Under the pieces are notes generated by a model that was not told where the DNA came from, did no database searches, and saw nothing but the letters and a program-made list of their open reading frames with translations. 64,000 nt of DNA. Origin: Octopus vulgaris. Taxonomy: Eukaryota. Position 1 is the stretch's first letter, and each line of letters begins with the position of its first letter. The stretch lies in NCBI GenBank assembly GCA_951406725.2, contig OX597840.1:16306001-16370000 (forward strand), written 5' to 3'. The position numbers and the translations under genes are program-made. Below, piece after piece: positions 13,542 to 62,390 of the stretch.

Positions 13542-13572
<31 letters not shown>

Positions 13573-13769: not shown

Positions 13770-13816
<47 letters not shown>

Positions 13817-13973
13817 ATGTATATATATATATGTATATATGTATATATATATATATGTATATATGTATATGTATATATGTATATGAATATGTATATATGT
13901 ATATGTATATATGTATATATATATATGTTTATATGTATATATATATATGTATATATATATGTATATATATATG

Positions 13974-14023
<50 letters not shown>

Positions 14024-14165
14024 CATGTATATATATATGTATGTATATATATATATATATGTATGTATATATATATGTATATATGTATATATATATGTAT
14101 ATATATATATGTATATATATATATGTATATATATATATGTATATATATATATGTGTATATATATG

Positions 14166-14220
<55 letters not shown>

Positions 14221-14388
14221 CATCATCATCGTTTAACGTCCGTTCTCCATGCTAGCATGGGTTGGACGGTTCGACCGGGAATCTGAGAAGCCAGAAGGCT
14301 GCACCAGGCTCCGGTCTTATCTGGCAATGTTTCTACAGCTGGATGCCCTTCCTAACGCCAACCACTCCGCGAGTGTAGTGGGTGCTTT

Positions 14389-14485
<97 letters not shown>

Positions 14486-14502
14486 ATGTGTATATATATA
14501 TG

Positions 14503-14555
<53 letters not shown>

Positions 14556-15269
14556 GTATATATGTATATGTATATATGTATATATGTATATGTATATATA
14601 TGTATATATATATATGTATATATATATATGTATATATGTATATATATATATGTATATATATGTATATATATGTATATATATGTATATATATATATATGTA
14701 TATATATGTATATATATATATATGTATATATGTATATATATATATATGTATATATGTATATATATATATGTATATATGTATATATATATATATATGTATA
14801 TATATGTATATATATATATATGTATGTATATATGTATATATATATATATGTATATATATGTATATATATATATATATGTATATATGTATATATATATATG
14901 TATATATATGTATATATATATATATATGTATATATGTATATATATATATATGTATATATGTATATATATATATGTATATATGTATATATATGTATATATG
15001 TATATATATATATATGTATATATGTATATATATGTATATATGTATATATATATATATGTATATATATATATGTATATATATATATATGTATATATGTATA
15101 TATATGTATATATGTATATATATGTATATATGTATATATATGTATATATGTATATATATGTATATATGTATATATATGTATATATGTATATATATGTATA
15201 TATGTATATATATGTATATATGTATATATATGTATATATGTATATATATGTATATATGTATATATATAT

Positions 15270-15300
<31 letters not shown>

Positions 15301-15313
15301 ATATATATATGTA

Positions 15314-15382
<69 letters not shown>

Positions 15383-15391
15383 GTATATATG

Positions 15392-15474
<83 letters not shown>

Positions 15475-15510
15475 TATATATGTATATATATGTATATATA
15501 TATATATATG

Positions 15511-15566
<56 letters not shown>

Positions 15567-19510: not shown

Positions 19511-21137
19511 ACCCTTTCACCACTATCCACACTGCCCTTGCCAGAGCACGTTCCGTAGACCGTGCATCTGCTCTCTCCCCCCAAACCCGCTCTGTAGTCT
19601 CCCGCCTCCCTTTTCCCCTCACCACCCCACGACCCTACCTCTCCAATGCACCATTCTTCGAGCTTTCCGGCATCTCCAGTCTGACCCGTCCACTTCACAC
19701 CTCTTCCCTAACCGACCCCTCCCCTCCTTCAAACGAGCCCATAACCTACGAGACCTTTTGGTCCACAGCTCCTACTCTGACCCTACCTCCCAACCTGGCT
19801 CGTTCCCCTGCTCCCGCCCACGTTGCCACACTTGCCCTTACCTCTCCAACACCACCCTCCTCACTGGCACCCATCATCGACCCTATCGCATCATCAACTC
19901 CTTTACCTGCACCTCCAGCAATATCATCTATTGCATCTCTTGCTCTCTCTGCCATTCCCTGTACATCGGACAAACGAGACGCCGCTTGGCTGACCAGTTT
20001 GTGGAACACCTCTGTGACATCCGCCTTGCCAACGACACACTGGTCTCACGCCATTTCCGCTCCACCGGTCACTCCTTGCAACACCTGTCTGTGTTCGGTT
20101 TGTCCTTGCACAGAGGCCATCCGGATTCCTGTTTGCGCCGTGAACAGGGATTAATCTTCTCTCTTCGCTCTTTTACGCCATTTGGTCTCAACTCTTCCCC
20201 CCCCTCCTCATCTAACCTCCCCCTCCTCCTACTTCTCTTCAGTCCTTCATCTTTTCACCCCTACTCTCTTTCCCTCCTCTTCTTTCCTCTTTCTTCTTCC
20301 CTCTTCCCCTTCTCTCTTTCTCTCTGCTCCCTCACTCCCATTCTCTCCCCCCCCTCTCCCCCTCTATCCCCCTCCTCCCTCCTTTCCCCTCCCCCTCCTC
20401 TTCTCCCCCTCCCCCTCCTCTTCTCTTTCATTCCCTCCCCCTCTCCCCCTCCTTCCTCCACCATCGTCTTTAATTCCATCCCCCCTCTCACCCCCTCATC
20501 TCATCTCACCCTCACCCCCTCCTTCTTTCCTTCTCCCCCCTCCCTCATCTCCCCCTCCTCACTCTCACCTTTTCTCTTCTCCCTCCTCCCTCCTCTTCTC
20601 TTTCCTCCTTCCCCCTCATCCTCTCCCCCCCTCCTCTTCTCCTCTTTCCTTCTTCCCCCTCCCCCTCATCTCCTCTCTCTACACTACACCATACGACATT
20701 ACACATCACATCATACATACACACGTCCAGACCTTTCATACGCACTACACCATACGACATTACACATCACATCATACATACATACACACGTCCAGACCTT
20801 CCATACGCACTACATACTCTCTCATACTCACACGCACCCTTATGTTAGGGCGAAGTTATTTGACCCTGTTATCTCCCCTACTTTCGCTCTCACGTCTGAT
20901 CTCTGACTTCTGGCCGGAATCAGATCGCCATGTTGAATCGCTAGCTTCTGCATGCATTTTTTTCTCTCCTTCTTTCTGTGTTTTTTCCTCTCTGTGTATC
21001 TTTCTGTTGAAGAGCGTAGGCTCGAAATGTAAAAGACTTGTTTTATTTATATTCCTGAGCGCCATACTAATACAATTGTTTGTTTGTTCTCCACCTGCCT
21101 TCGTCTTTTGTTTATTTTCATAAAGCTTCCCGTTATA
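19511..21137 (+). mobile_element. 5'-truncated Penelope-like element (Neptune-type GIY-YIG endonuclease, pyrimidine-rich 3' UTR)
   Basis: FKRAHNLRDLLVHS..PCSRPRCHTC..TCTSSNIIYCISCSLCHSLYIGQT..RL..EH..VSRHF..H..REQ..I..L..P.GLN; inserted in TA run. Confidence 0.92.
20999..21036 (+). ncRNA. Minimal hammerhead-like motif with A6U core variant
   Basis: TCTTT-CTGTTGA-A-GAGC(gtag)GCTC-GAAA-TG-TA-AAAGA. Confidence 0.55.
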
Positions 21138-22967: not shown

Positions 22968-23820
22968 TCAGGTCGTCCCATAAGTTCTGTCCGATTTTAC
23001 CTATTTATAAATTGAATGAAATTTAATAGTATTTTAGAATTTCTAATGGAATTAAAAATTATTTTTATGCATTTGTGTACATTTAAACTAATTAAATATT
23101 ATTTTACAGAATAATAGAATTAAAATTTCTTTGATTAAAACCCTTCCTAACATGGATGTATCCAAAGAGCATTTGAGGCATATAATGCTTTATGAGTACA
23201 AAAAAGGAAACTCTGCAGCCGAAGTGACTTGAAACATTCACTCAGTTTATGGGAAAGAATGCTTGAATGAAAGAACTTGCAGAAGATGGTTTGCAAAATT
23301 CAGAAGTGGAGATTTCAACCTTGAAGATGAAGATCGAACAGGATGTCCAGTTGAGTTTGATGATAAGCTCCTTGAGGCACTACTTGAAGAAAATCCTGTA
23401 TTATCAGTTGAAGAATTAGCAATAAAGCTTAGTTCAAACCATGCAACTGTTCATCATCATCCTCTACAACTTGGAAAGGTTCCTAAACTTGGAAAATGGG
23501 TGTCTCATGAATTGTCCAAAAGCAACCGCAAATCCCGAGTTGACACCTGCTCTTCTCTCCATTCTTGTGAACTCATTTCACCCTTTTTGGATAGACTTGT
23601 GACTGGTGACGAAAAATGGATCTTCTATCGAAATGTTAAACGTCGTAAACAGTGACTTGGTAAAGAGGAAAAGGCTCAACCACAATTGAGAAGGGAACTT
23701 CATGAGAAAAAGGTTCTTCTCTCTATCTGGTGGGATTGCAAAGGAGTAATTCACTTTGAAACCAAAAGAGTTTTACAGTGATGGGATTAAAAAGCTTATA
23801 AATAGATGGAAGGAAAAAAC
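22968..23820 (+). mobile_element. mariner transposon remnant
   Basis: TA|TCAGGTCGTCCCATAAG left end; EHLRHIMLYEYKKG, WFAKFRSGDF, WVSHEL, TGDEKW motifs; stops and deletion. Confidence 0.88.
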
Positions 23821-31035: not shown

Positions 31036-31039
<4 letters not shown>

Positions 31040-34000
31040 ATCACAACTTGACCAATAGAACAGAGCCTCTTATACCTTGTGAACCCAAGATTAATCTTAA
31101 GGACCACAAGAGAAATTTCCTAGAAAACCCCTTGGTAAGACTCATATGTCCAACTAAGTCGGACATTGGCCGACTTAGTAAATCTATCTTGGACAATGTT
31201 CTACCCCAAATAACCCCTATCCTTCCCTTAAGTCTATGGTTTAATACTGATGAAGTAATAGATTGGTTTAATTCTCTAGTTAGCATTAGCAGTTTCTCTT
31301 TTATTCAATTTGATATCAATAATTATTATTCTAGTATATCCCCAATTTTGCTAAATAAATCGCTTATTTTTGCCATGAATCACTCCCTTATATCTAGAGA
31401 AGAAATTGACATAATCCTACTAGCTAGAAAAACTATCATAGAATTTGAAGGTAAATTATGGACTAGAGTAGATACCCCTAATAATTTTGATATACCCATA
31501 GGCTCCAGCGATTCAGCTGAGATAACTAATTTAGTAGGTGCATATTTATTAAAGTGCATAAAAAGGGAAATCCCTGAATTACAGGGTGGTCTATATAGGG
31601 ATGATGCTCTGTTTGTTGTTCCTAAATCAAGCATTGAAAGGATTAAAAAGAAAATTAATAAGTTCTTTAAAGATTTTAACCTTAACATTACTTATGAACC
31701 TAACACTAAAATAGTCAATTTCCTAGATATTACCTTAAACCTTAATTCTAAGCTACATTACTCATTTAGAAAGGAAGACGAAATCACTAGATATGTAAAT
31801 AAGTTATCTAATCATCCCCCAAATATAATAAAATCATTAGTTAAAAATATCTCCCTAAGAATTTCCAAACTGTCATCTAATAGTGATATATTCACTCTCA
31901 CTCTAAACATTATAATACCGCATTATCTAAAGCAGGATATGACCATGAAATTACCTTTCTCGATAAGGATAGTTTGTATCTTCCATACAAGGAAGAGAAT
32001 ATAAACTACGTAAACAAGAATAACTATCGTGCCCAACATAAAAATAGATTTATGGTGACGAAAAATCTAGTGTACAAACCAAATTATATAAATAAAAATA
32101 TTGACCAGTGCATAAGTAACTTTGAAAAAAACTAATCTAGATAAATCTAAAAAGCATGCAAATAAAAGTAATACGAATAATAACTCTCGTGAGAACAGTA
32201 ATAATACATCTCACCCCAACTCTAATTTAAGAAAATATAAAAAAGAAAATAATGTCATTTGGCTAAATATTCCTTTTAACTGTGCGATTTTATCGAATGT
32301 ATACAGTAAATTCAAATCTATACTAGAAAAAAATTTTTAAACTTCTCATAAATATCATAGAATAATTTCTAAGAGAACAGTTAGGATTTCATATTCAACC
32401 CTCCCAAATATGTCCACCATAATAGCTAGAATTGATAGTGAAAACATTAAGTTAGCCAGGAGTAGTAAGATTAGTATCAACATGAATAGCAATAATAATT
32501 GTAATAATAGTATCAAAAATAAAAATAATATTAATAATAATTATCAAAATGAGAACAACAACAATAATAATAATATCAATAATAGAAATAATTATAATGA
32601 TAAAAATAGGGATAATATAAATAAAAATAATACCAAAAATGATGATAGCAATAATATCTATAGCAGTAATAACTTTGATATAAATACAAATAATAATAAC
32701 AGCAATATCAATAATGTAGATAATAGAGGTATTGTTATGTTAGATGTGAATGATAGTGTGAATGGATCAATAAATAGTAACCCCACTTTGGATAACAATA
32801 TTACCTATAATAATGAAAATAATATTTATAATAATTTGAATAACAGCAATGTGAGGGAACTGTCCTTAAATAATTCCAAATCTGAAAATTATCCCCCCAG
32901 TTGCAATTGTAGGATTAGCTCAAATTGTCCGGCATCTGGTCGTTGTTCAGTCCAAAATGTAATCTATAAATGTACTATAATAACTTCTAATAATAACTTT
33001 TTTTTACATCAGTTGTTCTATTAATTTTAAACAGAGAATTAACAATCATCTTTCCTCTTTCCGATTAGATCATAAGGCAGGTTGCACTACACTATCTAGC
33101 AAAATTTGGGAACTCAAAACTAATAATATTAAATATAACCTAAAATGGAAAATAGTTAGAAGGGCAATACCTTACAGAAATAATAGAGTAGACTGTCAAC
33201 TCTGTTCTATGGAGACCTACGAGATTTTAAAGTATAGAAAAAATAAAAATCTACTAAATAATCGTCTAGAGTTAGGTCTGTCTTTCATTCATTCAAAAAT
33301 CGGAACTTTAAAATATTTCAAATAGAAATTTGAAGGTTTTCCTATTGTTTTCTAACTGTATCTTTTTAACATAATGATAAATAGAAAATATTGTTATATT
33401 TCGGAATGGTCATATTGCCAGTTTAGCCAATAATATACTATGCCAACTTTTAATTGACTTTATAGTCAACTAAATTAACCTTACTTAAATCATAGAATTG
33501 CTCATTTTCCCAATTCTATTCTAAATTTAACATGTAATACTATTCCCCCAGTTATAATCTGACTTTCACTATAAATTTGACCATTTGCTATTGAATTTAA
33601 TTGACCTCTAGATAGTGACCTAAATTCTTTCTCACCATATAAAAATAAAAGTTAAAATAAAAATAAATAGCCTTCTATTCTAGTGTTAACCTTGATTTTC
33701 TTACTGTATCTTTCTCTGCCTAAAACCCTCTTATTTCTTTCCTTATATCTCCCTTTCTCCTAACTCCTACTATAAATTCTGATGGCTTTCATTTGAAAGC
33801 AAGGTTTGGTGAACCTTACGGTCTCTTAAGAATTTAATGTTCCTCCCACACTGACCTAAATTTTCTGTCACCATAGAAATAGACTGACCCTTCTTTCTAG
33901 TGTCAATCTGTCTTTGTCCTTTTACATCCCCCACTTTTTTTCCCCTTCTGTTCTTTTCTCCAGCTAATCTACTCTCCTCAACCTACTATACTACCATTCC

Positions 34001-34430
34001 TATCACTAAAGAAATTTTTTCTTGCAACAGTTAGATGTGAACTTAATCTTGATCTGACTGGCATCTTTCTTCATGTTTCCTGAAATTCATATCCACAACT
34101 TTATCAGTATTTTTACCTTCTCCAGGATGTTACTAATTGATTTGAGAACTTTACATTGTTGGAAAACATATATGAACTTAATCCTGGTTTGCCTGGCATC
34201 CTATTTCAAGTTCCTGAAACTCATATCTACAACTTTATTGGTATATTTGCACTCTCTAAGATGTTACTAATTGATTTAAGAACTTTACATTATTGGAAAA
34301 CCTATATGAAATTAGCTGAAGATTACTTGACATATTATATTTGCTGTAATATTTGCAGCTTTAATAGATTATTATAGTATGAAACAATTGTACTAAATTA
34401 CCGGATCCATTCTTGTTGCTTATCTTTTGG

Positions 34431-34432
<2 letters not shown>
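31036..34432 (+). mobile_element. 5'-truncated Penelope-like element (RT plus C-terminal GIY-YIG, probably Hydra-type), frameshifted
   Basis: LKDHKRNF..RLICPTKS, QFDI..YYSSI, GLYRDDAL, VNFLDITL; CNCRISSNCPASGRCSVQNVIY; frame at 33002-33325 FYISCSINFKQRINNH..TTLSSKIWELK..KWKIV..CQLC..LLNNRLE; ~134-bp duplication 34039-34306; ends in TA run. Confidence 0.92.
34312..34396 (+). ncRNA. Type-I hammerhead ribozyme motif in the PLE 3' end
   Basis: TTAG-CTGAAGA-T-TACT...(GCTGTAAtatTTGCAGC)...AGTA-T-GAAA-CAATTG-TA-CTAA. Confidence 0.8.
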
Positions 34433-34481
<49 letters not shown>

Positions 34482-34577
34482 GAGTAAGCACATAAATGTG
34501 AAACAAGGTGGTAAAAAGAGTACTCAAATACCAGTAGAAAGCTTTGTTAAAAGTTTTTAAAAAATATTTTAGCAAAA

Positions 34578-34615
34578 CTGTCCGACGAACGGGAACGTGA
34601 AACTCCGAGTCACAG
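34578..34615 (+). ncRNA. Minimal hammerhead motif with U4C core variant
   Basis: CTGT-CCGACGA-ACG(ggaa)CGT-GAAA-CTCCGAG-TC-ACAG. Confidence 0.65.
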
Positions 34616-34648
34616 CTTTTGTTATATTTCTGCTGCTTTTAAATAAAG

Positions 34649-34681
<33 letters not shown>

Positions 34682-34934
34682 TTACTGTACACACACATAT
34701 ATATATAATTGATGAAGGAAACGGAAAATGGATTTAGTCTGAATCTTTACTTGTCCTGCAGCAGTCCCTTAGGGGTAAGATAATGTGCATCTAGTTGTGT
34801 TGACACAATCAATGCAGGCTGTGTCACTTCAGGTGGTTGGTGCAAAAAAAGATGTTGCACTAGATATACTGAGATCTTGACATTTTTGTTCTCTCTCTCA
34901 CACACATATACATATGCATTATTTTTCCTTTGCA

Positions 34935-35208
34935 AGAGCAAACATGAAACCCTACAGAAAATATTGGGTTGTCCGGAAAGTTCATGCCTTTATTTAAGGC
35001 GGCGAGCTGGCAGAAATGTTAGCACGCTGGGCGAAATGCATTGCCGTATTTCGTCTGCCGTTATGTTCTGAGTTCAAATTCTGCCGAGGTCGACTTTGCC
35101 TTTCATCCTTTCGGGGTCGATAAATTAAGTACCAGTTACGTACTGAGGTCGATATCTGTCCTTGTTTGTCCCCTCTGTGTTTGGCCCCTTGTGGGTAGTG
35201 AATAAATA
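34935..35208 (+). mobile_element. tRNA-derived SINE of a second family, with 5' extra sequence and 17-bp TSD
   Basis: aaggcggcgagctggcagaa...gagttcaaattc...gcctttcatcctttcggggtcgataaa; flanked by attatttttcctttgca at 34918 and 35209. Confidence 0.8.
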
Positions 35209-35226
35209 ATTATTTTTCCTTTGCAG

Positions 35227-35376
35227 GATCTGAAAATATTTGGTAGGGAAGAGGAAAATAAATCCCTTCAACAGTTAACGCTAATTGTCAATGTAACTTC
35301 TCCAACAACGCTGCTTGGCAAAGGAGAAATTCTGGACAAAATGTTGCTGCTTACCAAAGTCTCTTTTGCTCTTCAA
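35227..35376 (+). CDS. CMTR2: CMTR2 exon G
   Basis: tttgcag|GAT...CAA|gtgagt; 150 nt open, phase 0/0; DLKIFGREEENKSLQQLTLIVNV...FALQ. Confidence 0.78.
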
Positions 35377-35479
35377 GTGAGTGTGTCTTAAAGCACTGGC
35401 TTCTATCTCTTCAACTGTCTTAAATATTTTTTGTTCTCTTTGTTGTTTAACCCTGGTTCAGTCCCAATTGAGCAGATCA

Positions 35480-36587
35480 ATGGTATTCCCAAGAAGTTTT
35501 GGAAGTCAGCTGGAAAGATTCTGGCTTCAGTGTTTTGGGTCAAAGATAGAGTACTCATAAAATACCTGCCAAAGGGCCATGTCATCAATGCAGAATACTA
35601 CATGTCTCCTTTGGATGAACAGCATGAAGCTGTGGAAAACTGAACTGTGGTGTCCTGTTCTTGCAGGACAGTGCATCAGCACACACAGTACATGAAACCC
35701 TACAGAAAATATTGGGTTGTCCGGAAAGGTCGTGCTAATTTATAGTAACTTACATTTTTCGACTTATTTTAGAACGTGGTTGAGTCCATAAAATAGGATT
35801 TGACTACACCTCCATTTAAAGCAGAGTTTAAGCTATCTTTTTTGGGGAAGAAGGTTTATGTTCCTATAACCTGTGTTAATTCTGTAACCCTTTAAAATGG
35901 AGGATAAGAAAGTTCATTTTCAGCACTTGATGCTTTGGGAACCAGACAAAAATTGCTGCAGCTTGGCTGGGATGTGTTACCCCACCCTCCATATTCACCA
36001 GATATTGCTCCTTCAGATTTCCACTTATTCAGGTCTCTGCAGAATAGTCTTAATGGTAAAAATTTCAATTCCTTGGATGACGTAAAAAGATACCTTGATG
36101 AATTCTTTGCCATAAAACCACCTCAATTCTGGGAAGAGGGTATTTTCAAGTTAAAGGAAAGATGGGGACGCATTGTGCAATAAAATGGTTCATATTTGGT
36201 TGATTAAAAATGCAATGGCAAGTATTTATTGACTTTTTCTTTCCTTTAAAAATCGGCACGAACTTTCTGGACAACCCAGTACATGACTTTGGCTTTGAAT
36301 TGGTAGATTAACCACCTTTCTTTCCTGACTTAGCTATCACCACTTTTCACAACTGAAGAAACATTTCAAGGAAATGAAATTTCACTCTGATTCGGAAGTG
36401 ATCGCTGCTACTGAGGCCTGGTTGGTGGTCCAACCTTCCAAGTCCTTTTTACAGGGTTTAGGAAAACTGAAGGACGGTTGCAATAAGTGTTTGAATCTGA
36501 GTGGGGAATATGTTCAATAAAATCATAATTAACTTATCTTCCTGTATTTTCTTTTACTCAAAGCCAGGAACTTTTCAGCACCCCTTG
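35480..36587 (+). mobile_element. mariner remnant interrupted by a nested mariner
   Basis: SAGKILASVFW..YLPKGHVINAEYY; LQDSA..H; right end ggaacttttcagcaccccttg|TA. Confidence 0.75.
35712..36279 (+). mobile_element. Internally deleted mariner, same family and deletion as 28253-28817
   Basis: TA-flanked TTGGGTTGTCCGGAAAG TIRs; HPPYSPDIAPSDFHLF. Confidence 0.92.
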
Positions 36588-36845
36588 TATATACATACAC
36601 CAGTTTCCTACAGTTTCTATCTGCCAAATCCACTCATAAATCATTTGTTGGACCAGGGCCAACAGTAAAAGACCCTTGCCCAGGGCACCACATAGTGGGA
36701 CTGAACCCAGGACCATTTGGTTACAAAGAAATTCGACCACAGCTGTACCTGCATCCAGTTGACTATTTTTGTTTTTTTCTATCTTATTTAATTGGTGTTT
36801 TTAATCTAATTGTGTCAATGAACTCTTTTATTTTAATTACTCTAG

Positions 36846-36944
36846 AAACTGAAGGCTGATGACAATCTCCTGCTTCTGACTCATTCCTTTCTCACAAGAT
36901 TCTCCGCTGGTCTTCTCCTTCTTGCTTATGATTGCTTCCAGAAG
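36846..36944 (+). CDS. CMTR2: CMTR2 exon H
   Basis: tctag|AAA...AAG|gtttgt; 99 nt; KLKADDNLLLLTHSFLTRFSAGLLLLAYDCFQK matches the TRF-x-AGL...CF motif of the C-terminal MTase-like domain. Confidence 0.88.
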
Positions 36945-38089
36945 GTTTGTAGGTTTATGGTTTTTTTGTAATTTATTGTTTTTTTTTATGGTTTAGTCTC
37001 AGCAGGAAGAGACGGACCTGTGACCTTTTTTATAAAGTGTCCAAGATTATATATTATTTTGCATCAATACATAACGACTGGCAAAATCGTTAGCGTGCTG
37101 GGCAAAGTGGTTAGTGGCAAGTTATCCGTTTTTACGTTCTAAGTTCAAATTCTCTCAAAGTCGACTTTGCTTTTCATCCTTTCAGGATTGATAAAATAAG
37201 TACCAGTTGAACACTGGAGTCAATTTAATCAACTTACCCGCTCCACTGAAATTGTTGGCCTTGTGACAAAATTCGATATCAATATATACAAAATCTAAGG
37301 TGGCAAGCTGGCAGAATCGTTAGCACGCCAAGTGAAATGCTTAGTGGTATTTTGTCCATCTTTACATTCTGAGTTCAAATTCCGCCAAGGTCGACTTTGC
37401 CTTTCATCCTTTCGGGGTCGATAAATTAAGTACCAGTTGCATACAAGGGTCAATCTAATCAACTGCACCCCATCAAAAATAAGTACCATTTGAGCACTGG
37501 GGTCGTTGTAATCAATTTGCTCCCCACAACCACCCACGAAATTGCTGGCCTTGTGCCAAAATTTGAAACCATTATTAATAAGGTGGGGAGCTGGCAGTAT
37601 CATTAGAACTTCAGACAACATGCTTAGTGGCATTTTATCATAGGCGCAGGAGTGGCTGTGTGGTAAGTAGCTTGCTTACCAACCACATGGTTCTGGGTTC
37701 AGTCTCACTGTGTGGAACCTTGGGCAAGTGTCTTCAACTATAGCCTCAGGCAAATCCTTGTGAGTGGATTTGGTAGACAGAAACTGAAAATAGCCCATCG
37801 TATATATGTGTGCGTGTGTTTGTGTGTCTGTGTTTGTCCCCCCCCCCCCCATCGCTTGACAACTGATGTTGGTGTGTTCACGTCCCTGTAACTTAATGGT
37901 TCGGCAAAAGAGACCAATAGAATAAGTACTGGGCTCGATTTGTTCAACTAAAAGCGGTGCTCCTGCATGGCCACAGTCAAACGACTGAAACAAATAAAAG
38001 TAAAAGAAAGGCTCTTTATGTTCTGTGTTCAACTCTGCTAAGGTTGACTTTTCCTTCCATCCTTTTGAGAATGCATAAAACATGAAGGT

Positions 38090-38520
38090 CGGCTAAAATG
38101 TTCATAGGCTGACCAAGCTACTCTCATGCAATCTGACCAGTGTTGCAGTTCTTGGATCCCATTGGTGAAGAAGCTTTCATCCTGTTACTCAAATGAGTTA
38201 ACAGCAGACATGCTGTCATCATCACTGCAACACTGGTTTCCAGTCAAGTGTTTTTTATAATGTTGGGAAACAAATGATAGTCAGAAGGGGCCAAGTTAGG
38301 GGAATAGGGAGGGTGAACAACTAGTTCAAAGCGACAGTAACACACAACAGCCATTGAAAGCAAGGACTTGTGTGCTGGAGCACTGTCTTGATGAAACAAG
38401 ATCCCTTTCATCAGTTTTCCTGGGCATTTCATCTCGATAGCCTTTCGTTACTGTCTCAGAAGTTGGCATAGTACCCTCCATTGATGGTGTGACCTTTTTG
38501 AAGATAGTCAATAAGAAATT
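38090..38520 (-). mobile_element. mariner catalytic-domain fragment
   Basis: ILFHQDSAPAH..HPPYSPNLAPSDYHLF. Confidence 0.8.
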
Positions 38521-38936
38521 ATTGTACACTAGCTGGCTCCGTGTTGTCAAAAATGACGGTTAATTGTAGTATTTTATATATAAATAAGGTAATAAATGGA
38601 ATAGTGTATTTGTTCCTCATCGCTGCTTGATAATGTTGGTTCATTTACACCTCTTCTGTGACTTAGCAGTTTGGTAAATGACACTGACAGAATAAGTAAC
38701 AGGCCTTAAAGAAAACATTTATAAATACTGGGGTTGATTTATTTGGCTAAAACCCTTCAAGGTATTGCTCTAGCATGGCCACAATTCAATGACTGAAGCA
38801 AGTAAAAAATATAAACTATATATGGGTATATGTGTGTGTATTTGTCTTTATGTGTGTGTATGTCTTTATGTGTGTGTATTTGTCTTTATAGTGTATATGT
38901 CTTTCAATACAGTTGAACCAATTTTCTTCAAAACAG

Positions 38937-39120
38937 ATCGGGATATTTCCCACGCCTCATGCTGGAACTTTGAAACAGTTGGTGTTACTTTCAGACTTTA
39001 CTTCCTGTCCTGGGTACATTGCCAAATACTTGCAGGTTCTTGTACAAACCTATGAGCGCCATGGATCAAGCCAGGAACGAGACGTCTTAGAGATTGTTCC
39101 AATGAAAATTCTGAATAAAG
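38937..39120 (+). CDS. CMTR2: CMTR2 exon I
   Basis: aaacag|ATC...AAA G|gtttgt; 184 nt, phase 0/1; ...DVLEIVPMKILNK matches the CMTR2 C-terminal VL-x-x-VPM motif; an in-frame alternative acceptor exists at 38913. Confidence 0.85.
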
Positions 39121-40559
39121 GTTTGTGTAAATGCATTATCACCATCACCATTTAATGCGCATTTTTCCATACTTGCATGGGTCAGACAGAATTTGTTGAG
39201 GCAGATTTTCTGCAGCTCGATGTTTTTCATTTCATCCACCCTTGTTTGTTTCCAAATAAAGTAATATTTCCCCATGGGAAACTCGAAATAAACATCACCA
39301 GCATGACACTGATGCTTGTTTAAAACCATCCTTGACAAGGGTACATACAAACACACGTATATGTGTGGAACACATGGGAGCAGGAGACCCAGGAAGACAT
39401 GGGATGAAGTACTGATGAACAACCTCAGGAAACTAAACTTTTCAGGTGAGATGATAAAGGACCAAGACACCTGGCTGTACTCAAGAAGCCCCATACCCAC
39501 AGTAGACGTGTTAAGACCAACCCTGCAGGTGATGTAAAGCACTTGTGACAATGCCACGTAAAAGCACTCATGGTGATGCCATGTAAAATTGCCCCTGTGG
39601 TGCCACATAAAAGTGACTGTGCAGCGTCACGTAAATGAGCCCATGCAGTGCTACGTAAACGTTCTTGTGTCAGTGCCTGTATAGTCCCACTTAAAAGTGC
39701 CCAGCACACTCTGCAAAGTGGTTGGAGTTAGGAAGAGCATCCAGCCGTAGGAACCAGGCCAAATCAGACAGGATCTTGGTGCAGCTCCCCAGTTTACCAG
39801 TTAAACATTCCAAGCCATGCCAGCATGGACAGCAGACGTTAGATGATGATGATGATATATGCATACATACATGCATATCTATATACCCACACTCACACAC
39901 ACACACATCCTTTTTTCATCATTATTTCAACATGCCCTTTATAATGCTTTGCATTGGTCTGATGGAGTTTGAGGCAGATTTTTCTATGGCCAGATGCACT
40001 TTCTGTTGCCAACCCTCACCTGTTTCCAAGCAAGGTAATATTTCCCCCAATGGCCAGACATGTGCTCATGGAAGATTGGAATTGAAGGACACTGCTTATA
40101 TGACAGTGACACTCATTTACAATTATCGCACAATGTCAAAACAAGAAGACTCAAACACACACACATACACTCATGCATATGTGCACACACACACACATGC
40201 TTTAATATTTTGCTTAGGCATTGCAATACTAATAATCTTGTGTTAGAACTCAATATACGTGTGAAGCTATAGGGTAATACTGAAGCACTTAACTACGAGT
40301 GCATCGCATCTTTTAGCAGAAACAGCTGTAAGCTAATGAAGTTCATAACAGAATTATTTATCCCTTTATCATCCGAGTTTCTTATACGTATATATGCAAG
40401 ATAGCTGTGTGGTAAGTAGCTTGCTTTACCAATCACATACTTTCAGGTTCAGTCCCACTGCGTGGCACCTTGGGCAAGTGTCTTCTTCTGTAGCCTTGGG
40501 CCGGCGAAAGCATTGTGAGTAGGTTTGGCAGACAGAGGCTGAAAGAAGCCTGTTGTATG

Positions 40560-40596
<37 letters not shown>

Positions 40597-40599
40597 GTA

Positions 40600-42192
40600 T
40601 TGTCTTGAAGATGTGTCAAAACCAACTTGCACCCCCTCTAGCCAATCTGTGGCGGAACTCATTGGATGCTGGATATATACCAGAAGACCTTCTATCCCAG
40701 TCTGTTGTCCCAGTTTTCAAAAAAGGAAACAAATCGCTTGCCGTGAATTACCGTCCAATCTCACTCACCTCTCATATCATCAAGGTATTTGAGAGGGTGC
40801 TGAGATCGCGTATGACTCACTTCCTTGAGAGTCATAATATGCTGAACCCCAACCAGCATGGATTCCGTAATGGGAGAGATTGCCTGACGCAGCTACTGCA
40901 TCATTTTGATGACATTTTGAGAGCCTTGGGAGAGGGTTCCAACACTGATGTCATCTACCTTGATTTCAGCAAGGCCTTTGACAGGGTTGATCATAAGATC
41001 CTTCTGAGAAAGCTGTCCAATATTGGTGTCACTGGAAAGCTGCTGCAATGGATCAAGTGCTTCCTCTCTAACAGAACCCAACATGTTGTAGTCGAAGGAG
41101 TCAAATCCAGCCCAGCCAAAGTCAGCAGTGGTGTCCCACAAGGCACTGTGTTGGGCCCACTTCTCTTCATCATCTACATAAATGATATTACTGACACCAT
41201 CAAACACAGCAACATCAGAACCTTCGCTGATGATTCCAAGCTCCAGAAGGTCATCAATGGCGTGGATGACCGAATAAACCTTCAGTCAGACCTACTGGCT
41301 GTTGTCCAATGGGCGGAAAAGAATAACATGTTGCTAAATGAAGACAAATTCGAACTGATCCACTTTGGAAGAGAGGACGCTCTGAAACTCCCATACTCTC
41401 TTCCTTCTGGAGAAATTCTCATGGCATCCAACAACATCAGAGACCTGGGAGTAACAGTGGACAACAACATAAGCTGGGCTACACATATAAGCAGCAAAGT
41501 TGACATGGCCCGCAGAATGTGTTCCTGGATTCTCAGAACCTTCCAGTCGAGAGATTCCCACGCTATTATCCTTCTCTTCTCCACTTTTGCCCGACCCCAC
41601 CTTGAATACTGCTGTCCACTGTGGTCTCCCTACACAAAACAAAATATTATGAGAATTGAAGCTCCCCAAAGGTCAATCACAAAAAAGATAGATGGCATGT
41701 CAGACCTTGACTACTGGGGTAGACTAGAGAAGCTGAAATTGTATTCACTCCAACGACGCCGTGAACGCTACATTATCTGTATGATGTGGAAAATATTCCA
41801 TCAGCACTGTCCGAATGATGTTGGCATCACCTTCAAAATGCATCCAAGGCTTGGACCACGTGCCATCCGTCCACAACAAAAATCTAAATCGCATCACATA
41901 ACGACAATACGGCACAACTATTTCACCTCAATTGGACCCGCTCTCTTCAACATTACACCAGGACACGTCAAAAAAGAAACTGACCACACAAAATTCAAGA
42001 AGTCTTTGGACAAATTCCTTCAAACAGTACCGGACAAACCATCCACACCCGGATATGTCTCCGCAAACAATAACTCTCTGCTCGAATGGGCCTTGGTGCC
42101 CAAATCCTGAACTGAAAGACTTCGCCAGGTGGTGCTATTAAGTTAGACATGGCCTGGGCCAATACTGGCCAAAAACCTTTCTAAGTTAAGTT
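40600..42192 (+). mobile_element. 5'-truncated CR1/L2-group LINE with uninterrupted RT frame to 42110
   Basis: NYRPISLTS, QHGFR, YLDFSKAFD, SGVPQGTVLGPLLF, FADDSK, RPHLEYC; tail ctaagttaagtt; splits a SINE at its TA tract. Confidence 0.92.
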
Positions 42193-42197
42193 ATATG

Positions 42198-42232
<35 letters not shown>

Positions 42233-42303
42233 GTATATATATATATATGTATATATATATGTATATATATATGTATATATATATATGTATATATATATAT
42301 ATG

Positions 42304-42336
<33 letters not shown>

Positions 42337-42868
42337 GTATATGTTTGTGTGTATATGTTTGTGTGTCAGTGTTTGTCCCTGCCACCATCACTTGACAACT
42401 GATTCTGGTGCGTTTGTGTCCCCATAACTTAGTGATTTGGCAAAAGAGACCGATAGAATAAGTACTAGGCTTACAAAGAATAAGTCCTGGGGTCATTTGC
42501 TCAACTAAAGGCGGTGCTCCAGCATGGCTGCAGTTAAATGACTGAAACAAGTAAAAGAATGTATGTATGTATATATATATATGTGTGTGTGTGTGTATGC
42601 ATATATGTATATATATATATGTGTGTATGCATATAGGTATGCATGTATATGTATATATATGTGTATATATAATAAGGTAGTCATAATGGTGGATGATCAT
42701 ATATTTTTTTTATTTCTTTACATCTCATTAAAAATTCTACTGCTTTCTTCTGTTATTGGATTTATCAAAAAATGGTTCAAATTTACATTTCTTGGCCTTT
42801 TTATAAAGAATTTCCAGTGGTTTGCCAAGCGAGGGAGAACAAAGAAGAAAAAATCTTTCTCTCTCTCT

Positions 42869-43708
42869 CAGGGTGTGGTGACTAAAGTGTCTAAATTAAG
42901 CAAAAATGAAAATAACACTGACATCTCATTTTAACAAATGTATTTACCACAATTACATAAAAATATCTTGAAATACTAAAAGAGTAAATTTATTTAATAA
43001 AATCACCATTGGCTTCAATCATGTCCTCCAGACAGCTTCGGAATCTTCTGCAACTCTTCTGGACAGTCTCCTTGTTTAAGTTGGTGTTTATCTTTGGTGT
43101 TACAAGGAGTTTTGTTGGTCTCTTTCTCAATTGTGCTCCACACATAATAATCAAGGGGGTTGCAGTCTGGGGAGTTAGGTGGCCAGGTATTAGGGGGGAT
43201 GTAGTCACAGAAATTGTCTGACAGCCATGACTGGGTTCTCCTGCTTGTGTGGCATGGTGCAGAGTACTGTTGCCAGACATAGGGTCTGCCAGCAGCCACC
43301 CTCTTGACCCAAGACAGCACTACATCCTCCAGGCACTTGATGTAGGCCTCTGTGTTTAGTCTAAGGTTGTGTGGGAAGTTGAATGGAGGCGTAACATCGC
43401 TATCACTAGTGATCACTCCAAGCACCATGAAGTTGACTGGCTGTTTGATTTTTATCGCTCTTGGTACTTATCCTCAGATCACCACCCAAGCACTCTGAAA
43501 TTCTTGTATTGGAGCTTCCGGCACAAAAATACCAATCAGTACAACATGTTTCCAAATTTCTGGCAGAGTGAATTGCGTTATGGTGCTGCTTTTCTCACAG
43601 ACAGTGCCCAACTGACCCTGCTATACTGTGTAGTCGACAAAATCAAAAACAATGTGCACACACGAAATTAAAAATATAAAATGGTAGCAATTTACCCATC
43701 ACACCCTG
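42869..43708 (-). mobile_element. Tc1/maT-like DNA transposon, internally deleted
   Basis: CAGGGTGTGGTG ... CATCACACCCTG|TA TIRs; WQQ-x-SAPCH..WPPNSPDCNPLDYYVW. Confidence 0.88.
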
Positions 43709-43720
43709 TATATATATGTT

Positions 43721-43762
<42 letters not shown>

Positions 43763-44015
43763 GAGCAATAAGAAAATGGAGGGGATCAATAGGTGGTTCA
43801 TCAACTTTTAGACATTATATTATGCCTATTTAGTTATTTACTAAAATGACAATTACAGGAATATACATACATGTATAACATATTATGCTTTACATATAAA
43901 ATATATTAATATACTATCAAAATATCAAAATATAACATACAGGAATATAAATTTGGAAAAATATCTTACAGCTGTTTCAGCCACGAGGCAAAAATACCTC
44001 ATGTATGTGTATATA

Positions 44016-44051
<36 letters not shown>

Positions 44052-44603
44052 GTGTGTATCTGTTTTCTCTCTTTCATCTTCCTTCTCTTCTATCTGCTGC
44101 CTGTGACCCGTCACTGATTTTCTATTTTCTCTGCCTTTTCACCACCGGATGCTTAGTCTGCTGGTCAACTTTTCCTTCTCTCTTCCTAATTCTGTTTTTA
44201 TATATCCATTTGAAGATTTCTTCCAGGTATTAATCCACCTCCTTCGTGTTTGACCACAAGGCGCTATTTACTGCCTTCGTCTGTCGTTTCAAATTACATT
44301 TGTTTACTTTTGTACGTCCACTCCATACTTACGTACGTCCACCCCATACTTTCATGCATCTACCCTGTATTGTTTTGCTTGCTCAAGCCTTAATTCTATG
44401 CAAATCTTGTGTGTGCTGCTGATATATGAAGTTCCCAGTCTTATCGTTAAAAGCACGAAACTGGGTATTAATATTTATGATCAATAACTGAAGAAGGATT
44501 AGGGTCCCTGTGTCTGTCCTATGTGTACGTTTTGTAGTAGTTGATGCACTTTTCATTTATGGACTAATTGAATGCCATGCATCCCGACTTTTGTTAACAG
44601 TAA

Positions 44604-44640
<37 letters not shown>

Positions 44641-44665
44641 AATGAATATGGAAGACTTCTATAAA

Positions 44666-44749
44666 TGGCTGAAAATTGCTCAACATTTTAAAACTGATGT
44701 AATACTTACAATGTTTAATAAAATGAAGTAGCATGAAACGATCGTACCA
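44666..44749 (+). ncRNA. Hammerhead motif related to 34312-34396, with G8A change
   Basis: TGG-CTGAAAA-T-TGCT...AGCA-T-GAAA-CGATCG-TA-CCA, followed by the same aattaccg...ttgttgcttat tail. Confidence 0.65.
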
Positions 44750-45200
44750 AATTACCGAAGATATACTTGTTGCTTATTTTGAATATATATATATATATGT
44801 ATATATACACACACACATATATGCATATATATTATATAATGTCTGTCTATACACAGACACACACATATTCATCATTGTCATCATGAATATATTTGACCAA
44901 ATGGTTAAGCAGTTCCCTTTTCATGAAATCCCAGGTTCAGTCCCACTCTGTAGAATCTTCAGCAAAAAAAGGGTGCATTCAAACCGGTATGCTTTTGAAT
45001 CTCTTTAACAATTCACAATAATGACTTTTATCACTTTTATTCCTACCTCAGTTCATCTAATTGTATATATCTATCGTTACTTTTTCGATTTCCAATGTGC
45101 ATTTTCGCTTATTTTTCTTCTTACTTTCCCCTTACATTTCCACGTGTAGTTTCTATTTTCTTTTTGTAACATATTTCTATTATATATGTCTATATCTATG

Positions 45201-45725: not shown

Positions 45726-48700
45726 TCATCATCATCATCGTTTAGCGTCCGTTTTCCATGCTAGCTTGGGTTGGACGGTTCGACCGGGGATCTGGGAAGC
45801 CAGAAGGCTGCACCAGGCTCCAGTCTTATCTGGCAATGTTTCTACAGCTGGATGCCCTTCCTAACGCCAACCATTCCGTGAGTGTAGTGGGTGCTTTTTA
45901 CATGCCACCTGCACAGGTGCCAGGCGAGGCTGGCAACGGCCACGGTCGGATTGGTGCATTTTACGTGCCACCGGCACGGAAGCCAGTCGAGGCGGCACTG
46001 GCTTTGGTCACGATTCGGATGGTGCTTTTTACGTGCCACCGGCACGGAGGGCGGCGCTGGCATCGGCCACGATTCAGATAGTGCTTTGTACGTACCACCA
46101 GTCTAGGGGTCCTGGCATCTGCCGGGTGCCAGTCATAGGATTGGTTCAATTTCGATTCCGATTCCGATTTCACTTACCCCAACAGGTCTTCGCAAGCAAA
46201 GGGGGGTTGGCATGAGTGCCTGTCGTCGGATGAGGTTCGATATCGACTTCACTTGCCTCAACAGGTCTTGTCCAAGGGAGGAAAGGCATGCGTAAGTGGG
46301 CTGGACTCACTTGTCCTGCCTGGTCTTCTCACGTACAGCATATTTCCAAAGGTCTCGGTTGCTGGTCATTTCCTCAGTGAGGCCTAAAGTTCGAAGGTCA
46401 TGCTTCACCACCTCGTCCCAGGTTTTCCTGGGTCTACCTCTTCCACGGGTTCCCTCAACTGCTAGGGATTGGCACTTTTTCACACACCTATCTTCATCCA
46501 TTCTCGCTACATGACCATACCAGCACAATCGTCTTTCTTGCACACCACAACTGATGCTCCTTAGGTACAACATTTCTCTCAAGGTGCTAACGCTCTGTCG
46601 AGTATGTACCCTGATATTACACATCCATCGGAGCATACTGGCTTCATTGCTTGTGAGCTTACGCATGTCCTCAGCAGTCACGGCCCATGTGTCACTGCCA
46701 TGTAGCATGGCTGTTCGTACACATGCATCATACAGTCTGCCTTTTACTCTGAGCGAGAGGCCTTTAGTCACCAGCAGAGGTAAGAGCTCCTAAACTTTGC
46801 CCAGGCTATTCTTACTCTAGCAGTTACACTTTCAACGCACCCACCCCCACTACTGACTTGGTCACCTAGATAACGGAAGCTATCAACTACTTCTAGTTTT
46901 TCCCCCTGGAAAGTGACGGAAGTTGTTTTCTGCAGATTTTCAGAGGTTAATGCTCCCGAGCATCTGTACCTTTTCTACAGATCGAGCAGGGCCATCTTCC
47001 TGAAGACATTTGTGGATTGTCTACCTTCCTACTTATTAGTACTTTGGTTTTAGCTAGGTTGACTCTAAGGCCCCCTCGATTCTAAACCCTCCTTCCACAC
47101 ATGGAACTTCTCCTCCAGTTCTGATAGTGACTCAGCAATTAGAGCAAGGTCGTCAGCATAGAGGAGCTCCCAGGGGCAACCTGTCTTGAATTCCTCCGTA
47201 ATTGCCTGGAGGACTATGATAAATAGGAGGGGGCTGAGTACTGAACCCTGGTGGACCCCAACCTCTACTTTGAATTCTTCTGTGTACATGTTGCCAACCC
47301 TAACTTTACTTACGGCATCCCTGTACATGGCTTGCACAGCCCTCACCAGCCATTCATCTATCCCTAGTTTCCTCATTGACCACCAGATAAGGGATCGGGG
47401 GACCCTGTCAAAGGCTTTCTCCATGTCAACGAAAGCCAGGTACAGGGGCTTATCTTTGGCTAGGTATTTCTCCTGCAGCTGCCTTACCAGGAATATAGCA
47501 TCAGTGGTACTTTTCCCTGGCACGAACCCAAACTGCATCTCATCTAAACTAACTCTCTCTCTAATTAGTTGGGCTATGACCCTCTCCGTAACCTTCATTA
47601 CCTGATCCAACAGCTTGATACCTCTGTAATTATTTGTATCTAGGGCGTCACCTTTACCTTTGTAGCAGTTGACTAGTATGCTGCTACACCAGTCATTGGG
47701 TATGATTCCTTCGTGTATCACCTGGTTAACTATACGGGTGACTAGGTTATAGCCGACACTGCCAGATATTTTGAGCATCTCTGCAGTAATTCCTGATGGG
47801 CCTGGGGCTTTCCCTGTCTTCATGCTTCTAATTGCTTTAACTATGAAAGAATTGTCAACTCGGATGGCTGGTCCCTCTGTTGGGTCAACATTCGGCAGAC
47901 TCTCTTTATCCCATTCATTTTCTTTATTCAGCAACCTTTCATAGTGGCATCTCCAAACCTCTCTCTTTGCATCCTCATTTAGCGCAAGTGAACCATCATC
48001 CATGCGGACACATTTCTCTCCTACCACATCACGATTCTCTCTCACACACTGTCTTGCAACACGAAATACCTCAAGTCTTTCATCCTCATGGCTCAGAACA
48101 TTGGCAAATTTTTTCTTATCCGCTTCCCCTCTGGCTAAATAAACCTGTCTCCTAGCTTCCATTCTGGCTGTCTGATACAATTCCCTGCTACCACCGTTCT
48201 TCCAGTCCTTCCAAGTCTGTCTCTTTTGTCTAATAGCCCTGTCAACCACAGTGTTCCACCACCACGTTACTCTGGGTCGAGATGGTACTTTGCTCCATTC
48301 ACAGATCTGGTCGGTGGCTGTCAGCAGATTGTCCCGTAGAAATCTCCAGTTGTCTTCCACATTAAGTGAAGCTATATCCCCTTCTATTTCGTCAAAGGCT
48401 TCGAGTAGTATGTCTCTAAATCTCTGTCCATTTGCAGGATCTTTAAGCTTCCAGACCCTTCTCCTCCAAGCTGGTCTTCTTCTGGGCAACCATTTAGCCC
48501 TGATCCTGAAGTTGCTAACTACTAATCTATGTTGAGGAGTACATTCTTCGCCCGAGAAGGTTTTGGCATTTATAAGCAGCCCTCTTTCCCTTTTTCTGGC
48601 AAGGATGTAGTCAATCTGGCTAGTGTGTCTGCCAGAACAGTCGGTGACTAGGTGAGAGGTGGGTTTCCTGAAGTTGGTATTGCAAACCATTAGGTCATTT

Positions 48701-48990
48701 GCATCGCAGAACTCCAGCAGCCTGGTTCCCTCCTCATTACGAGAGCCAAAACCGTAGCCTCCATAAACGCCATGGAAGCCCCCGACATGCCGTCCAACAT
48801 GTCCATTGAAATCACCTGCCACAAAGAGAAGGTCACTGTCATTTGTCAACGAGGTGGTCCGCAGTAGGGTGTCGTAGAATTGGTCTTTCTGTGCTTCCGG
48901 TAGCCCTGGTTGAGGGGCATATGCCGAGATGATGGTAGCTGACCTATGGTGAAGCACTAATCTAATTTTAAGTACTCTGTCACTTACTAC
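45726..48990 (-). mobile_element. RTE-clade LINE, 5'-truncated, with long open EN-RT frame
   Basis: AGDFNGHVG, SQIDYIL, QFGFVPG, DMEKAFD, GVHQGSVLSP, LLYADDL; 3' UTR and (GAT)n tail at 45726. Confidence 0.93.
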
Positions 48991-49988
48991 GTACAAAAAT
49001 AGTTGAGGGTTCCAGTTGATCTGATCATTCGGAGTAGCCTGTTTGTGGAATTTACGTGCAGGTGGTTGAGTATTCCACGGACACATATTACCCTTAACTT
49101 AGTTTTCAGGGAGATTCAGCATGACACACTAAGTGTGACAAGGCTGGCCCTTTGAAATATAGATACAACTCATTTTTGCCAGCTGAGTGGACTGGAGCAA
49201 CAGGAAATAAAGTGTCTTGCTCAAGAACACACCACCAGGAATTGAAATCACAACCTTATGATCAGGAGCTGAATACACGAACCCCTTAGCCATGTGTCTC
49301 TAACAGGATATTCTTAAAGAAATTAAAACTTTGTTGTACCAAAACAAAAGAAAAAAAATGTTTGCTATTACTGCAATGAGGTGTGTGTTGAGAGAGATTT
49401 GGTTTTTATTTCTAGCAAGCTGAACAACCATGTAGAAGCTTTCTCATCAACTCATTTTGTTATTTATTACAAACCCAAACTAAATGATCTTGTTGTTGTT
49501 GTTTAAACCCAGGTCAACAACCTCCTTTCTATTTTTAGCATGAGAAGCTATTTATATTTTTATTTCATGTGTTCTTCCTTCGTTGTTTTGAGGGAGAAAT
49601 ACAACTGCTATTTTTAAGTAAGGTTGGGTCTTAGTCATAGCAGGTCTAGATCTCATGAAGATCCCTGATTGGGTTTGTCAAGGCAAAAGGTTTTTTGCAT
49701 ATCATTTCTTCAGAGCTGACACACACACACACACATATAGGAACATTTTATAAACAAACTTTATTGGTATTTTATAGACAAAACTGTAAATTTCACCACA
49801 TGAGGGCAACTTTTTTCTCTATTCTAAGTGTAAATACCTAATCTCTCTTTGCTGTCTTCGCAGGTCTACTGTGTTCAAAATTACTTTCTTGTCTGTAAAA
49901 CACACACACACACACTAGAATATAACCATCCAACTCATGCCAGCATAGAAAACTGATGTTAAATGATGATGATGATATATGCTTTATT

Positions 49989-61174: not shown

Positions 61175-62390
61175 TTGGGTTGGCAACTAAGTTCCCGCCG
61201 TTTTTTAAATTAAAATTTTTTTTAAAGGTTTAATAAAAAATAACTAATTAATCAATAATGTAATTCACCCTTGTTTACAACTTCTTCCCAACGTTCAACA
61301 AGATTTTCAGTACCTCGTTGGTAGAAATCACCCGATTTGGACTCGTAAAATTGATCCAACCAAGCTCTCAATTCTGCATCAGTATTGAATGAAACTCCGC
61401 ACATTTGAAAGAGGTGGAAATCCGTTGGTGTCAAATCAGGAGAGTACGGCGGGTGTGGCAGCACTTCCCAGCCATGTGTTTGAATGGCTTCCTTGGTCAT
61501 ATTGGTGATATGAGGGCGGGCGTTGTCGTGCAGTAGGTCGTGCATGCTGCCAATGAGGTCTTTTCTCTTGAATAGCTGTGTTGAGTCGTTCCATCTGTTG
61601 AACATAGAGTTCCGCGTTGACCGTTTGGTTCCGTTCAAGCAATTCGTAATGGATAATCCCTTCCCAGTGTTACCATACGTACAACATCGTTTTACGCGGA
61701 AGAAGATCTTGCTTCACGCGTCGCTTGTTTTCATATTGATGTACAGGCACCATTTTTCGTCGCCATTAACAATTCGGTAAAGAGATCGTTGCTTGTGTTC
61801 ATGAGTTGAGCGGTGACGAGCAAGTAAACCAGCAGAGATTGTGGCTCGTTGATTTTTGTTGTTGTCACTTAAAGCATGCGGAACTCATGCTCCATACTTC
61901 TGAACCTTTCCCATTGAGTGAAGATGCTTCTCTATAGCAGTGTGGGAGCATTCCATTTTCTCTGCCAGTTTCCGTCGTTTGACGAGAATTTTCGTGCAAA
62001 GTTGGTTTAATTGTTCTTCATCGAACTCAACAGGACGGCCAGAACAAGGTGCGTCTTTGAAGTCAAAATTTCCATTTTTGAACTTGGTATACCAATCACG
62101 AGTGGTTCTTTCAGCTATGACACCCTCTCCATACACAGTATAAATGTCGCGAGCAGCTTTTGCGGCCTTAGAACCTTGATTAAAATAAAAAAGGAGGCGT
62201 CGAAAATGCTCGTTTTTCTTAACTTGACATTCTATTTTAATATGAAAATAACTAAAATTAACTAGAAAAAAAAAAGATTCCAAAATGATTCAAAAATAGA
62301 ATTCTCGAAAAAATAGATTCCAAAATTTAAAAACGCAATAAATTCTAAAATAAAAAAAAAAAAACCGCGGGAACTTAGTTGCCAACCCAA
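61175..62390 (-). mobile_element. Near full-length degenerate mariner with TA TSD
   Basis: TTGGGTTGGCAACTAAGTTCCCGC TIRs; KNEHFR, WYTKFKNG, LHDNARPH, HPPYSPDL. Confidence 0.93.

Follow-up and report, generated by a model that had tools for sequence, protein, structure and literature searches.

Do matched base changes between two copies of a ribozyme-like motif reflect selection on RNA structure, and would such motifs work in pairs? The question is raised by a 64,000-nucleotide (nt) stretch of the Octopus vulgaris genome (assembly GCA_951406725.2, contig OX597840.1, positions 16,306,001 to 16,370,000 of the forward strand; hereafter the window, with positions counted from its first letter), in which a first-pass annotation had noted two hammerhead motifs. 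Both are 3'-end remnants of two sister subfamilies of a Hydra-clade Penelope-like element (PLE). With a probability of roughly 0.8, we read them as type I hammerheads in the 3' end (pseudo-long terminal repeat, or pseudo-LTR) of these elements, with paired changes fixed between subfamilies and likely kept by selection on the source RNA, and with a dimer mechanism that the sequences would suggest. The motifs lie exactly where the annotation had placed them:

34312..34396, plus strand: copy A, a type I hammerhead motif of subfamily A1, with the core CUGAAGA/GAAA/UA intact and a cut predicted after 34392 from the standard hammerhead layout
44666..44749, plus strand: copy B, a type I hammerhead motif of subfamily B1, with G8A at 44674, a 3-bp helix I, a 59-nt arm and helix III CGAUCG

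Copy A reads (T)TAG CTGAAGA (58 nt, T TACT ... AGTA T) GAAA CAATTG TA CTA(A), which gives a helix I of 4 bp, a 58-nt helix II arm with a U.U closure, and helix III CAAUUG; copy B reads TGG CTGAAAA (59 nt, T TGCT ... AGCA T) GAAA CGATCG TA CCA. All of the core (CUGANGA, GAAA, UH) and helices I to III were found in copy A, and copy B, taken individually, departs from the core through G8A. Of ten helix pairs compared between the copies, seven were identical, three were changed on both sides (each from A-T to G-C) and none was broken, so the paired changes claimed for all three helices are real. The copies differ at 23 of 70 non-core positions, and this pattern arose in 0.11% of 200,000 random placements; conditional on six changes among the 20 helix positions, its chance is 0.3%. 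A descriptor scan of the window returned five hammerhead-like candidates: copies A and B, an inverted pair at 12417/12642 and a weak match at 3187. No hammerhead was found among the 150 of 199 Rfam matches listed, and the long arm and absent helix III loop would defeat the Rfam models; the Rfam output for the window was dominated by (TA)n miRNA artefacts.

Genome-wide, a tight pattern for this lineage gave 1,333 matches and a pattern blind to the paired positions gave 783, with none in the controls. When 200 copies were clustered, they fell into eight groups of 6 to 57 members plus 17 others, and the three paired changes are fixed subfamily differences: in A1 copies the second pair of helix I is A-T (38 of 40), as are the third pair of helix II (40 of 40) and the outer pair of helix III (40 of 40), and in B1 copies these pairs are G-C (11 of 11, 11 of 11 and 8 of 11, respectively). 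Other groups carry G.U states at helices I and III, and C-G and G-C farther out in helix I. Among 17 representatives, 88.5% of 425 cells were paired versus 79.1% after shuffling, and 53 cells versus 20 held double changes, with none of 500 shuffles as high; the representatives are related, and the shuffle control is not a probability. RNAalifold, unprompted, found helices I and II and the distal hairpin of the arm in these sequences.

Decay was scored against the group majority in 88 copies found with the pairing-blind pattern (loci for 90 of the first 100 matches listed). Non-CpG differences numbered 53 of 1,394 in helices (3.8%), 78 of 1,935 in the flank (4.0%) and 194 of 4,231 in the arm (4.6%). 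Since helices decay within groups at about the flank rate, selection acted on source elements and not on individual copies; the covariation was likely kept by selection on the RNA of active source elements, with genomic copies mostly decaying neutrally. The larger sample thus upholds selection on RNA structure, whereas the two copies do not serve, as had been proposed, as direct evidence of selection at these loci. Variation without regard to pairing, which the first-pass annotation had named as the contrary outcome, was not seen between subfamilies; within them, 52 changed helix pairs were broken versus 34 kept.

The G8A of copy B is its sole difference from the B1 majority over 131 columns, and another copy (C15:65703535) is the same as copy B over the matched stretch. 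G8A occurs in 20 copies across several groups, versus G8 in 1,192. The alignments suggest that the change in copy B is a private lesion, and its recurrence elsewhere fits recurrent private mutation; a transposing G8A sub-lineage was rejected, as the 20 copies are scattered over several subfamilies. By their letters, then, the window copies are relics, A catalytically intact and B with its private G8A.

The case for pairing between motifs comes from helix III. A single strand without a loop cannot pair the two inner letters of this helix, so covariation of the inner pair needs a second motif. We searched the genome with a pattern that left the four central helix III letters free and allowed 45 to 75 nt between the core halves, using the reversed pattern as a control, and retrieved loci for the first 100 long-arm matches listed, which gave 95 distinct sequences in 38 families. 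Perfect palindromes of nine kinds were present in 55 of the 95 motifs, and 83 were self-complementary with G.U allowed. With one random member per family, there were on average 22 perfect palindromes, against a shuffled mean of 4.3 and a maximum of 13 in 10,000 shuffles; the inner pair was Watson-Crick in 27 of 38 families versus 9.9 shuffled, and helix I reached at least 3 bp in 57% versus 8%. Computed pairing of the helix III 8-mers, which do not fold alone and pair as homodimers, was -6.4 kcal/mol for A with A, -10.0 for B with B, -5.8 for the G.U form, 0 for the A.C form and -1.9 for A with B. This last value makes A and B unlikely partners, and a dimer of these two copies, which also belong to different subfamilies, was rejected. 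The genome-wide data nevertheless back dimer pairing far better than two copies can, and the statistical support for this putative interaction is strong; the suggestion that the palindromes fit dimer cleavage is borne out to that extent.

Taken alone, the helix III change matches the outcome of two CpG decays, and it could be argued that CGATCG passed to CAATTG by two deaminations while the other two changes are chance subfamily differences. CpG helix positions do mutate faster in the copies (37 of 362, versus 53 of 1,394 for non-CpG positions), and all four single decay products of CGATCG are present. This decay is strand-symmetric (the products occur 7, 6, 5 and 4 times in 64 copies), yet G.U states outnumber A.C states 5.8:1 genome-wide: the G.U form CGATTG has 1,999 matches versus 344 for its strand mirror CAATCG (A.C), a count dominated by a few large families, and at the family level there were 15 G.U versus 3 A.C states (p=0.008). 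Moreover, the dominant palindromes of other families (CATATG, CAGCTG, CTGCAG) are unrelated to CpG, and helix I takes T-A, C-G, G-C and G.U states across representatives. Decay as the source of the covariation is thus largely refuted by the family palindrome statistics and the G.U/A.C asymmetry, and we consider it very improbable.

The same asymmetry bears on whether the palindrome is instead a DNA-level site, for example for the element endonuclease or a host factor. A palindrome of six bases is a typical protein site in DNA, which speaks for this explanation, but at least nine different palindromes serve here (nine of 16 possible kinds in one sample, and 13 once a second list, read by eye, is added), and preference for G.T over its strand mirror A.C is unexpected for double-stranded DNA recognition of a symmetric site. 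We regard a DNA-level role as highly doubtful, and read the G.U excess as placing the symmetry of helix III at the RNA level. The claim that helix III palindromy is preserved holds in that sense and not strictly at the DNA level, where two subfamilies have CGATTG, with its two G.U pairs, as their majority state.

The second distinguishing feature is the helix II arm. The long-arm pattern had 39,826 genome matches versus 1,419 for the reversed control, and a shorter-arm pattern (15 to 44 nt) had 16,350 versus 1,668, leaving about 38,000 long-arm and 15,000 shorter-arm matches above control. In the window the arm is built from a basal stem of about 10 pairs that includes mismatches, followed by an AT-rich internal region and a distal hairpin of 7 pairs; the annotation was right that helix II is extended (it had put the length at about 55 nt), but its pairing is not continuous. 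Over the 38 families, the folding z-score of the arm against mononucleotide shuffles averaged -1.8, and 13 of 38 were below -2. The arm is a folded, covarying extension that lies outside the catalytic core; most likely it is tolerated at that place and serves another 3'-end function.

An AATAAA at 44717-44722 in the arm of copy B, 24 nt before the cut site and followed by a U/GU-rich stretch, is a possible polyadenylation signal; nearly all copies of the window lineage retain AATAAA in the arm, with ATTAAA in group E and AATAGA in copy A. As a general rule for long arms this found no support: sense AATAAA/ATTAAA occurs in the arm in 3.9 of 38 families versus 5.4 shuffled, and the signal holds only in the window lineage. 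A wider proposal, which we think unlikely, is that the palindrome acts as a family-specific pairing code, with different palindromes in dozens of PLE families that share this genome and each family's RNA being cut only with kin, while the arm provides a second functional module (a protein dock or, in this lineage, the polyadenylation signal described above) in some 38,000 motifs missed by short-loop searches. One very young long-arm family (L257-L271) has 40 copies about 100% identical over 221 nt, with helix III CACGTG; by eye, its endonuclease seems to lack the CxCx5C linker cysteines.

The first-pass annotation had also described extra U residues after A9 and before G12. The letters are there, but they are better read as one facing pair, 10.1:11.1, than as two insertions: the positions are U.U in subfamilies A1, B1, B2, C and E, A-U in 13 of 13 A2 copies, G.U in 28 of 28 Y copies, G.U or A-U in Y2, and also G-C in relatives, so the two U's are best taken as this pair in its U.U state. 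The G10.1-C11.1 closure of helix II that is typical, though not universal, for type I hammerheads is therefore absent here. In the literature, the G10.1-C11.1 pair is called highly conserved (PMC4209133), and U.U closure already appears in Hydra rows with neighbouring bases nearly identical to those of copy B (PMC8557442), so the U.U state is not new.

To place the motifs in their elements, the surrounding features were as follows:

31036..34431, plus strand: 5'-truncated Hydra-clade PLE, flanked on both sides by (TA)n, with copy A at its 3' end; 72.9% identical over 2,371 nt to L091, a young full-length relative
31036..32004, plus strand: reverse transcriptase (RT) fragment (GSSDSAE, YRDD), after which the frame breaks; by-eye motif match to published Hydra RT rows
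32341..33325, plus strand: Asn-rich linker with CxCx5C, then a GIY-YIG-type endonuclease with CxxC, in two frames; label from the motif description in PMC8557442
34038..34314, plus strand: tandem duplication of 134 bp within the 3' untranslated part, with its end at helix I
34432..34478, no strand: (TA)n tract adjoining element A on its 3' side; (TA)n is the preferred target of the clade
44639..44783, plus strand: the whole of insertion B, about 145 nt, comprising the hammerhead and about 35 nt of 3' end, flanked by (TA)n and with no open reading frame (ORF); ends approximate, merging with the repeats

Element A is frameshifted as well as 5'-truncated, with copy A about 990 nt downstream of the broken RT/linker/endonuclease frame, and a Pfam search of its three frames gave no RT and no GIY-YIG match. 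Copy B is a fragment of a subfamily sister to that of copy A. That A and B might be the two pseudo-LTRs of one element was ruled out by their different subfamilies, their separate (TA)n sites and the unrelated DNA between them.

An endonuclease search of the genome (150 scored matches) led to L091, which has a 373-bp repeat at both ends, each holding one hammerhead (the two lie on one strand at a distance of 4,650 nt), and a 984-amino-acid open frame with RWK, DKT, CxCx5C, CxxC and CxH, and ends at (TA)n. The window element has the same domain order with broken frames. These features are those that Craig et al. list for the Hydra clade (PMC8557442): RWK and DKT are both in L091, the window copy being truncated upstream of them; L091 has CxCx5C, CQLC and CVH, and the window copy CxCx5C and CQLC with CxH decayed; CCHH, excluded in the clade, is absent by eye; and 104 of 200 copies end at (TA)n, with 80 continuing into the tail and 16 other or unscored. 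The L091 unit of 4,650 nt, with its long Asn-rich linker and long 3' part, exceeds the length of under 3 kb, which is a tendency in the clade and not a rule (Craig et al. 2021, PMC8557442). A first guess of Naiad/Chlamys membership was rejected because the endonuclease is C-terminal. The same paper lists an octopus member of the clade, Hydra-1_Obim. A Hydra-like endonuclease in one of 15 loci (E=1.7e-7) marks the largest of the other long-arm families as a PLE too, while the PLE link of the remaining long-arm families is assumed. Within L091:1708-1829 there are two sites, about 120 nt from each other, at which copies join (TA)n (the ends are loose), and the inverted copy ends at 1829, which suggests that the tail far exceeds the published PLE length of 30-40 bp.

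How might such motifs act? On the sequence evidence, each likely self-cleaves only when two copies pair, which is a known idea. Helix III would be too short to fold within one motif, and two motifs may pair through their self-complementary 8-mers (ACNNNNGU) into a double hammerhead; the likely partners would be the two pseudo-LTRs of one tandem transcript, and cutting at both sites would release unit-length element RNA. Double-hammerhead excision of unit-length RNA was proposed by Cervera and de la Pena (PMC4209133) and is summarised in PMC6765202. Among the 200 copies, the sequence continues past the intact cut site, with most 3' ends falling 34-39 nt downstream of it. As copies pass the site and stop about 37 nt beyond, the template of reverse transcription was uncut or re-ligated (circular) there; the pattern fits a circular intermediate, but also a template of unprocessed RNA, which is the main template in vitro (PMC11167929).

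Those 3' ends lend something to a different account, in which the structure is selected mainly as a non-catalytic RNA signal (dimerisation or protein binding that positions the RT start 37 nt downstream) and cleavage is weak or incidental. The uncut site is always contained in copies, the U.U closing pair and the long structured arm would suit such a signal, and in one study hammerhead mutants left insertion in vitro unaffected (PMC11167929). Yet source elements keep the catalytic G8 (1,192 copies versus 20 with A8), and position N7 is free to be A, T, G or C, as it should be in a catalytic core; the search patterns fixed the cut-site letter as non-G, and these conservation counts do not bear on it. 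We hold this mainly non-catalytic role to be quite unlikely, and prefer cleaving hammerheads in the pseudo-LTRs.

Several points weigh against the preferred reading. Besides the relatedness of the 17 representatives, each of the three changes may stand for only one to a few events within the lineage, and neither window copy reaches the full hammerhead fold under unconstrained folding. As U.U replaces a highly conserved G-C, activity may be low, and published in vitro activity is low even for dimers (PMC4209133). A Poseidon element inserted in vitro without need of hammerhead cleavage, and the same study saw no RNA-seq ends at the cut site (PMC11167929). A PLE protein was tied to only two lineages of the motif, and an upstream Hydra-like ORF match was found for only 2 of 39 motifs in larger loci; so low a rate would be expected of copies that are truncated and have long 3' ends, but is no proof of a PLE link.

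The closest known systems are the Hydra-clade PLE hammerheads (PMC8557442 File S2; PMC4209133 Fig. S2, Hydra magnipapillata row), which share the type I layout near the 3' end, (TA)n targets and a short helix I. The Penelope-x_HM rows, AUGG CUGAUGA U UGCC ... GGCA U GAAA, have the U.U closure and helix I and II bases nearly those of copy B. The published Hydra rows differ in a loop II of 3-10 nt, compared with a 58-59-nt arm with its own covarying hairpin here, and mostly in a 1-3-nt centre of helix III, compared with an even 6-nt palindrome in the window lineage; Hydra-1_Obim has a short helix II, unlike this lineage. The minimal or palindromic dimer-cleaving PLE hammerheads (PMC4209133; PMC6765202) have a self-complementary helix III too short for a monomer, as here, but in their consensus A9 is followed by a single extra base, and G10.1-C11.1 stands where the window copies have U.U (PMC4209133). 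Reported PLE helices II are at most 7-8 bp, and copy numbers reach about 9,000 per genome in one survey, whereas the arms here span 45-75 nt and the two arm classes far exceed that number. Non-LTR retrozymes (PMC7229834; bioRxiv 10.64898/2026.07.22.740005) are likewise type I, thought to act as dimers and related to PLE pseudo-LTRs, but are short tandem non-coding repeats, whereas the octopus copies are dispersed 3' ends of coding elements. In the literature searched we found no description of this long-arm class or of such counts; Lunse et al. or a supplement file of PMC4209133 may hold variants, and Craig et al. mention Naiad 'half cores' 35-50 nt apart and give long loops II in two plant PLE rows of their table (PMC8557442). 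What appears to be new is the 45-75-nt helix II arm and its abundance, palindromic dimer-cleaving PLE hammerheads being already known.

Elsewhere in the window, positions 12189-12871 hold a 693-bp inverted duplication between (TA)n tracts, with arms 95.8% identical and a third hammerhead family on each arm (12642, plus; 12417, minus) that has a 33-nt helix II and helix III CTAAGTTAG; it looks like an inverted truncated insertion typical of PLEs. An endonuclease fragment of another PLE type, presumably Neptune-like, lies at 19512-20150 (CxxxxCxxC linker, CCHH-like pattern; 91% identical to a copy in L139), and no hammerhead was found at 19-22 kb with a simple pattern. A degenerate 8.4-kb (TA)n array at 7165-15566, with several embedded insertions, some of them repeated, is the source of the false Rfam miRNA matches. 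Other transposon remains (40602-42107, 47065-49098, 5128-6842, 23233-23655, 43015-43467 and 61252-62289) include a long interspersed nuclear element RT with Pfam RVT_1 (E=2e-31) and, labelled by eye, two minus-strand endonuclease-RT copies and mariner-like transposase fragments.

The mechanism class being known already, the two-copy observation is ordinary, and the scale is the useful part. About 38,000 long-arm motifs in at least 38 families form a natural experiment for the dimer model, through the covariation of the inner pair and the preference for G.U over A.C, and they suggest that PLE ribozymes are undercounted when search descriptors restrict loop II to short lengths. The young, near-identical full-length elements are ready substrates for asking what PLE hammerheads do in retrotransposition.

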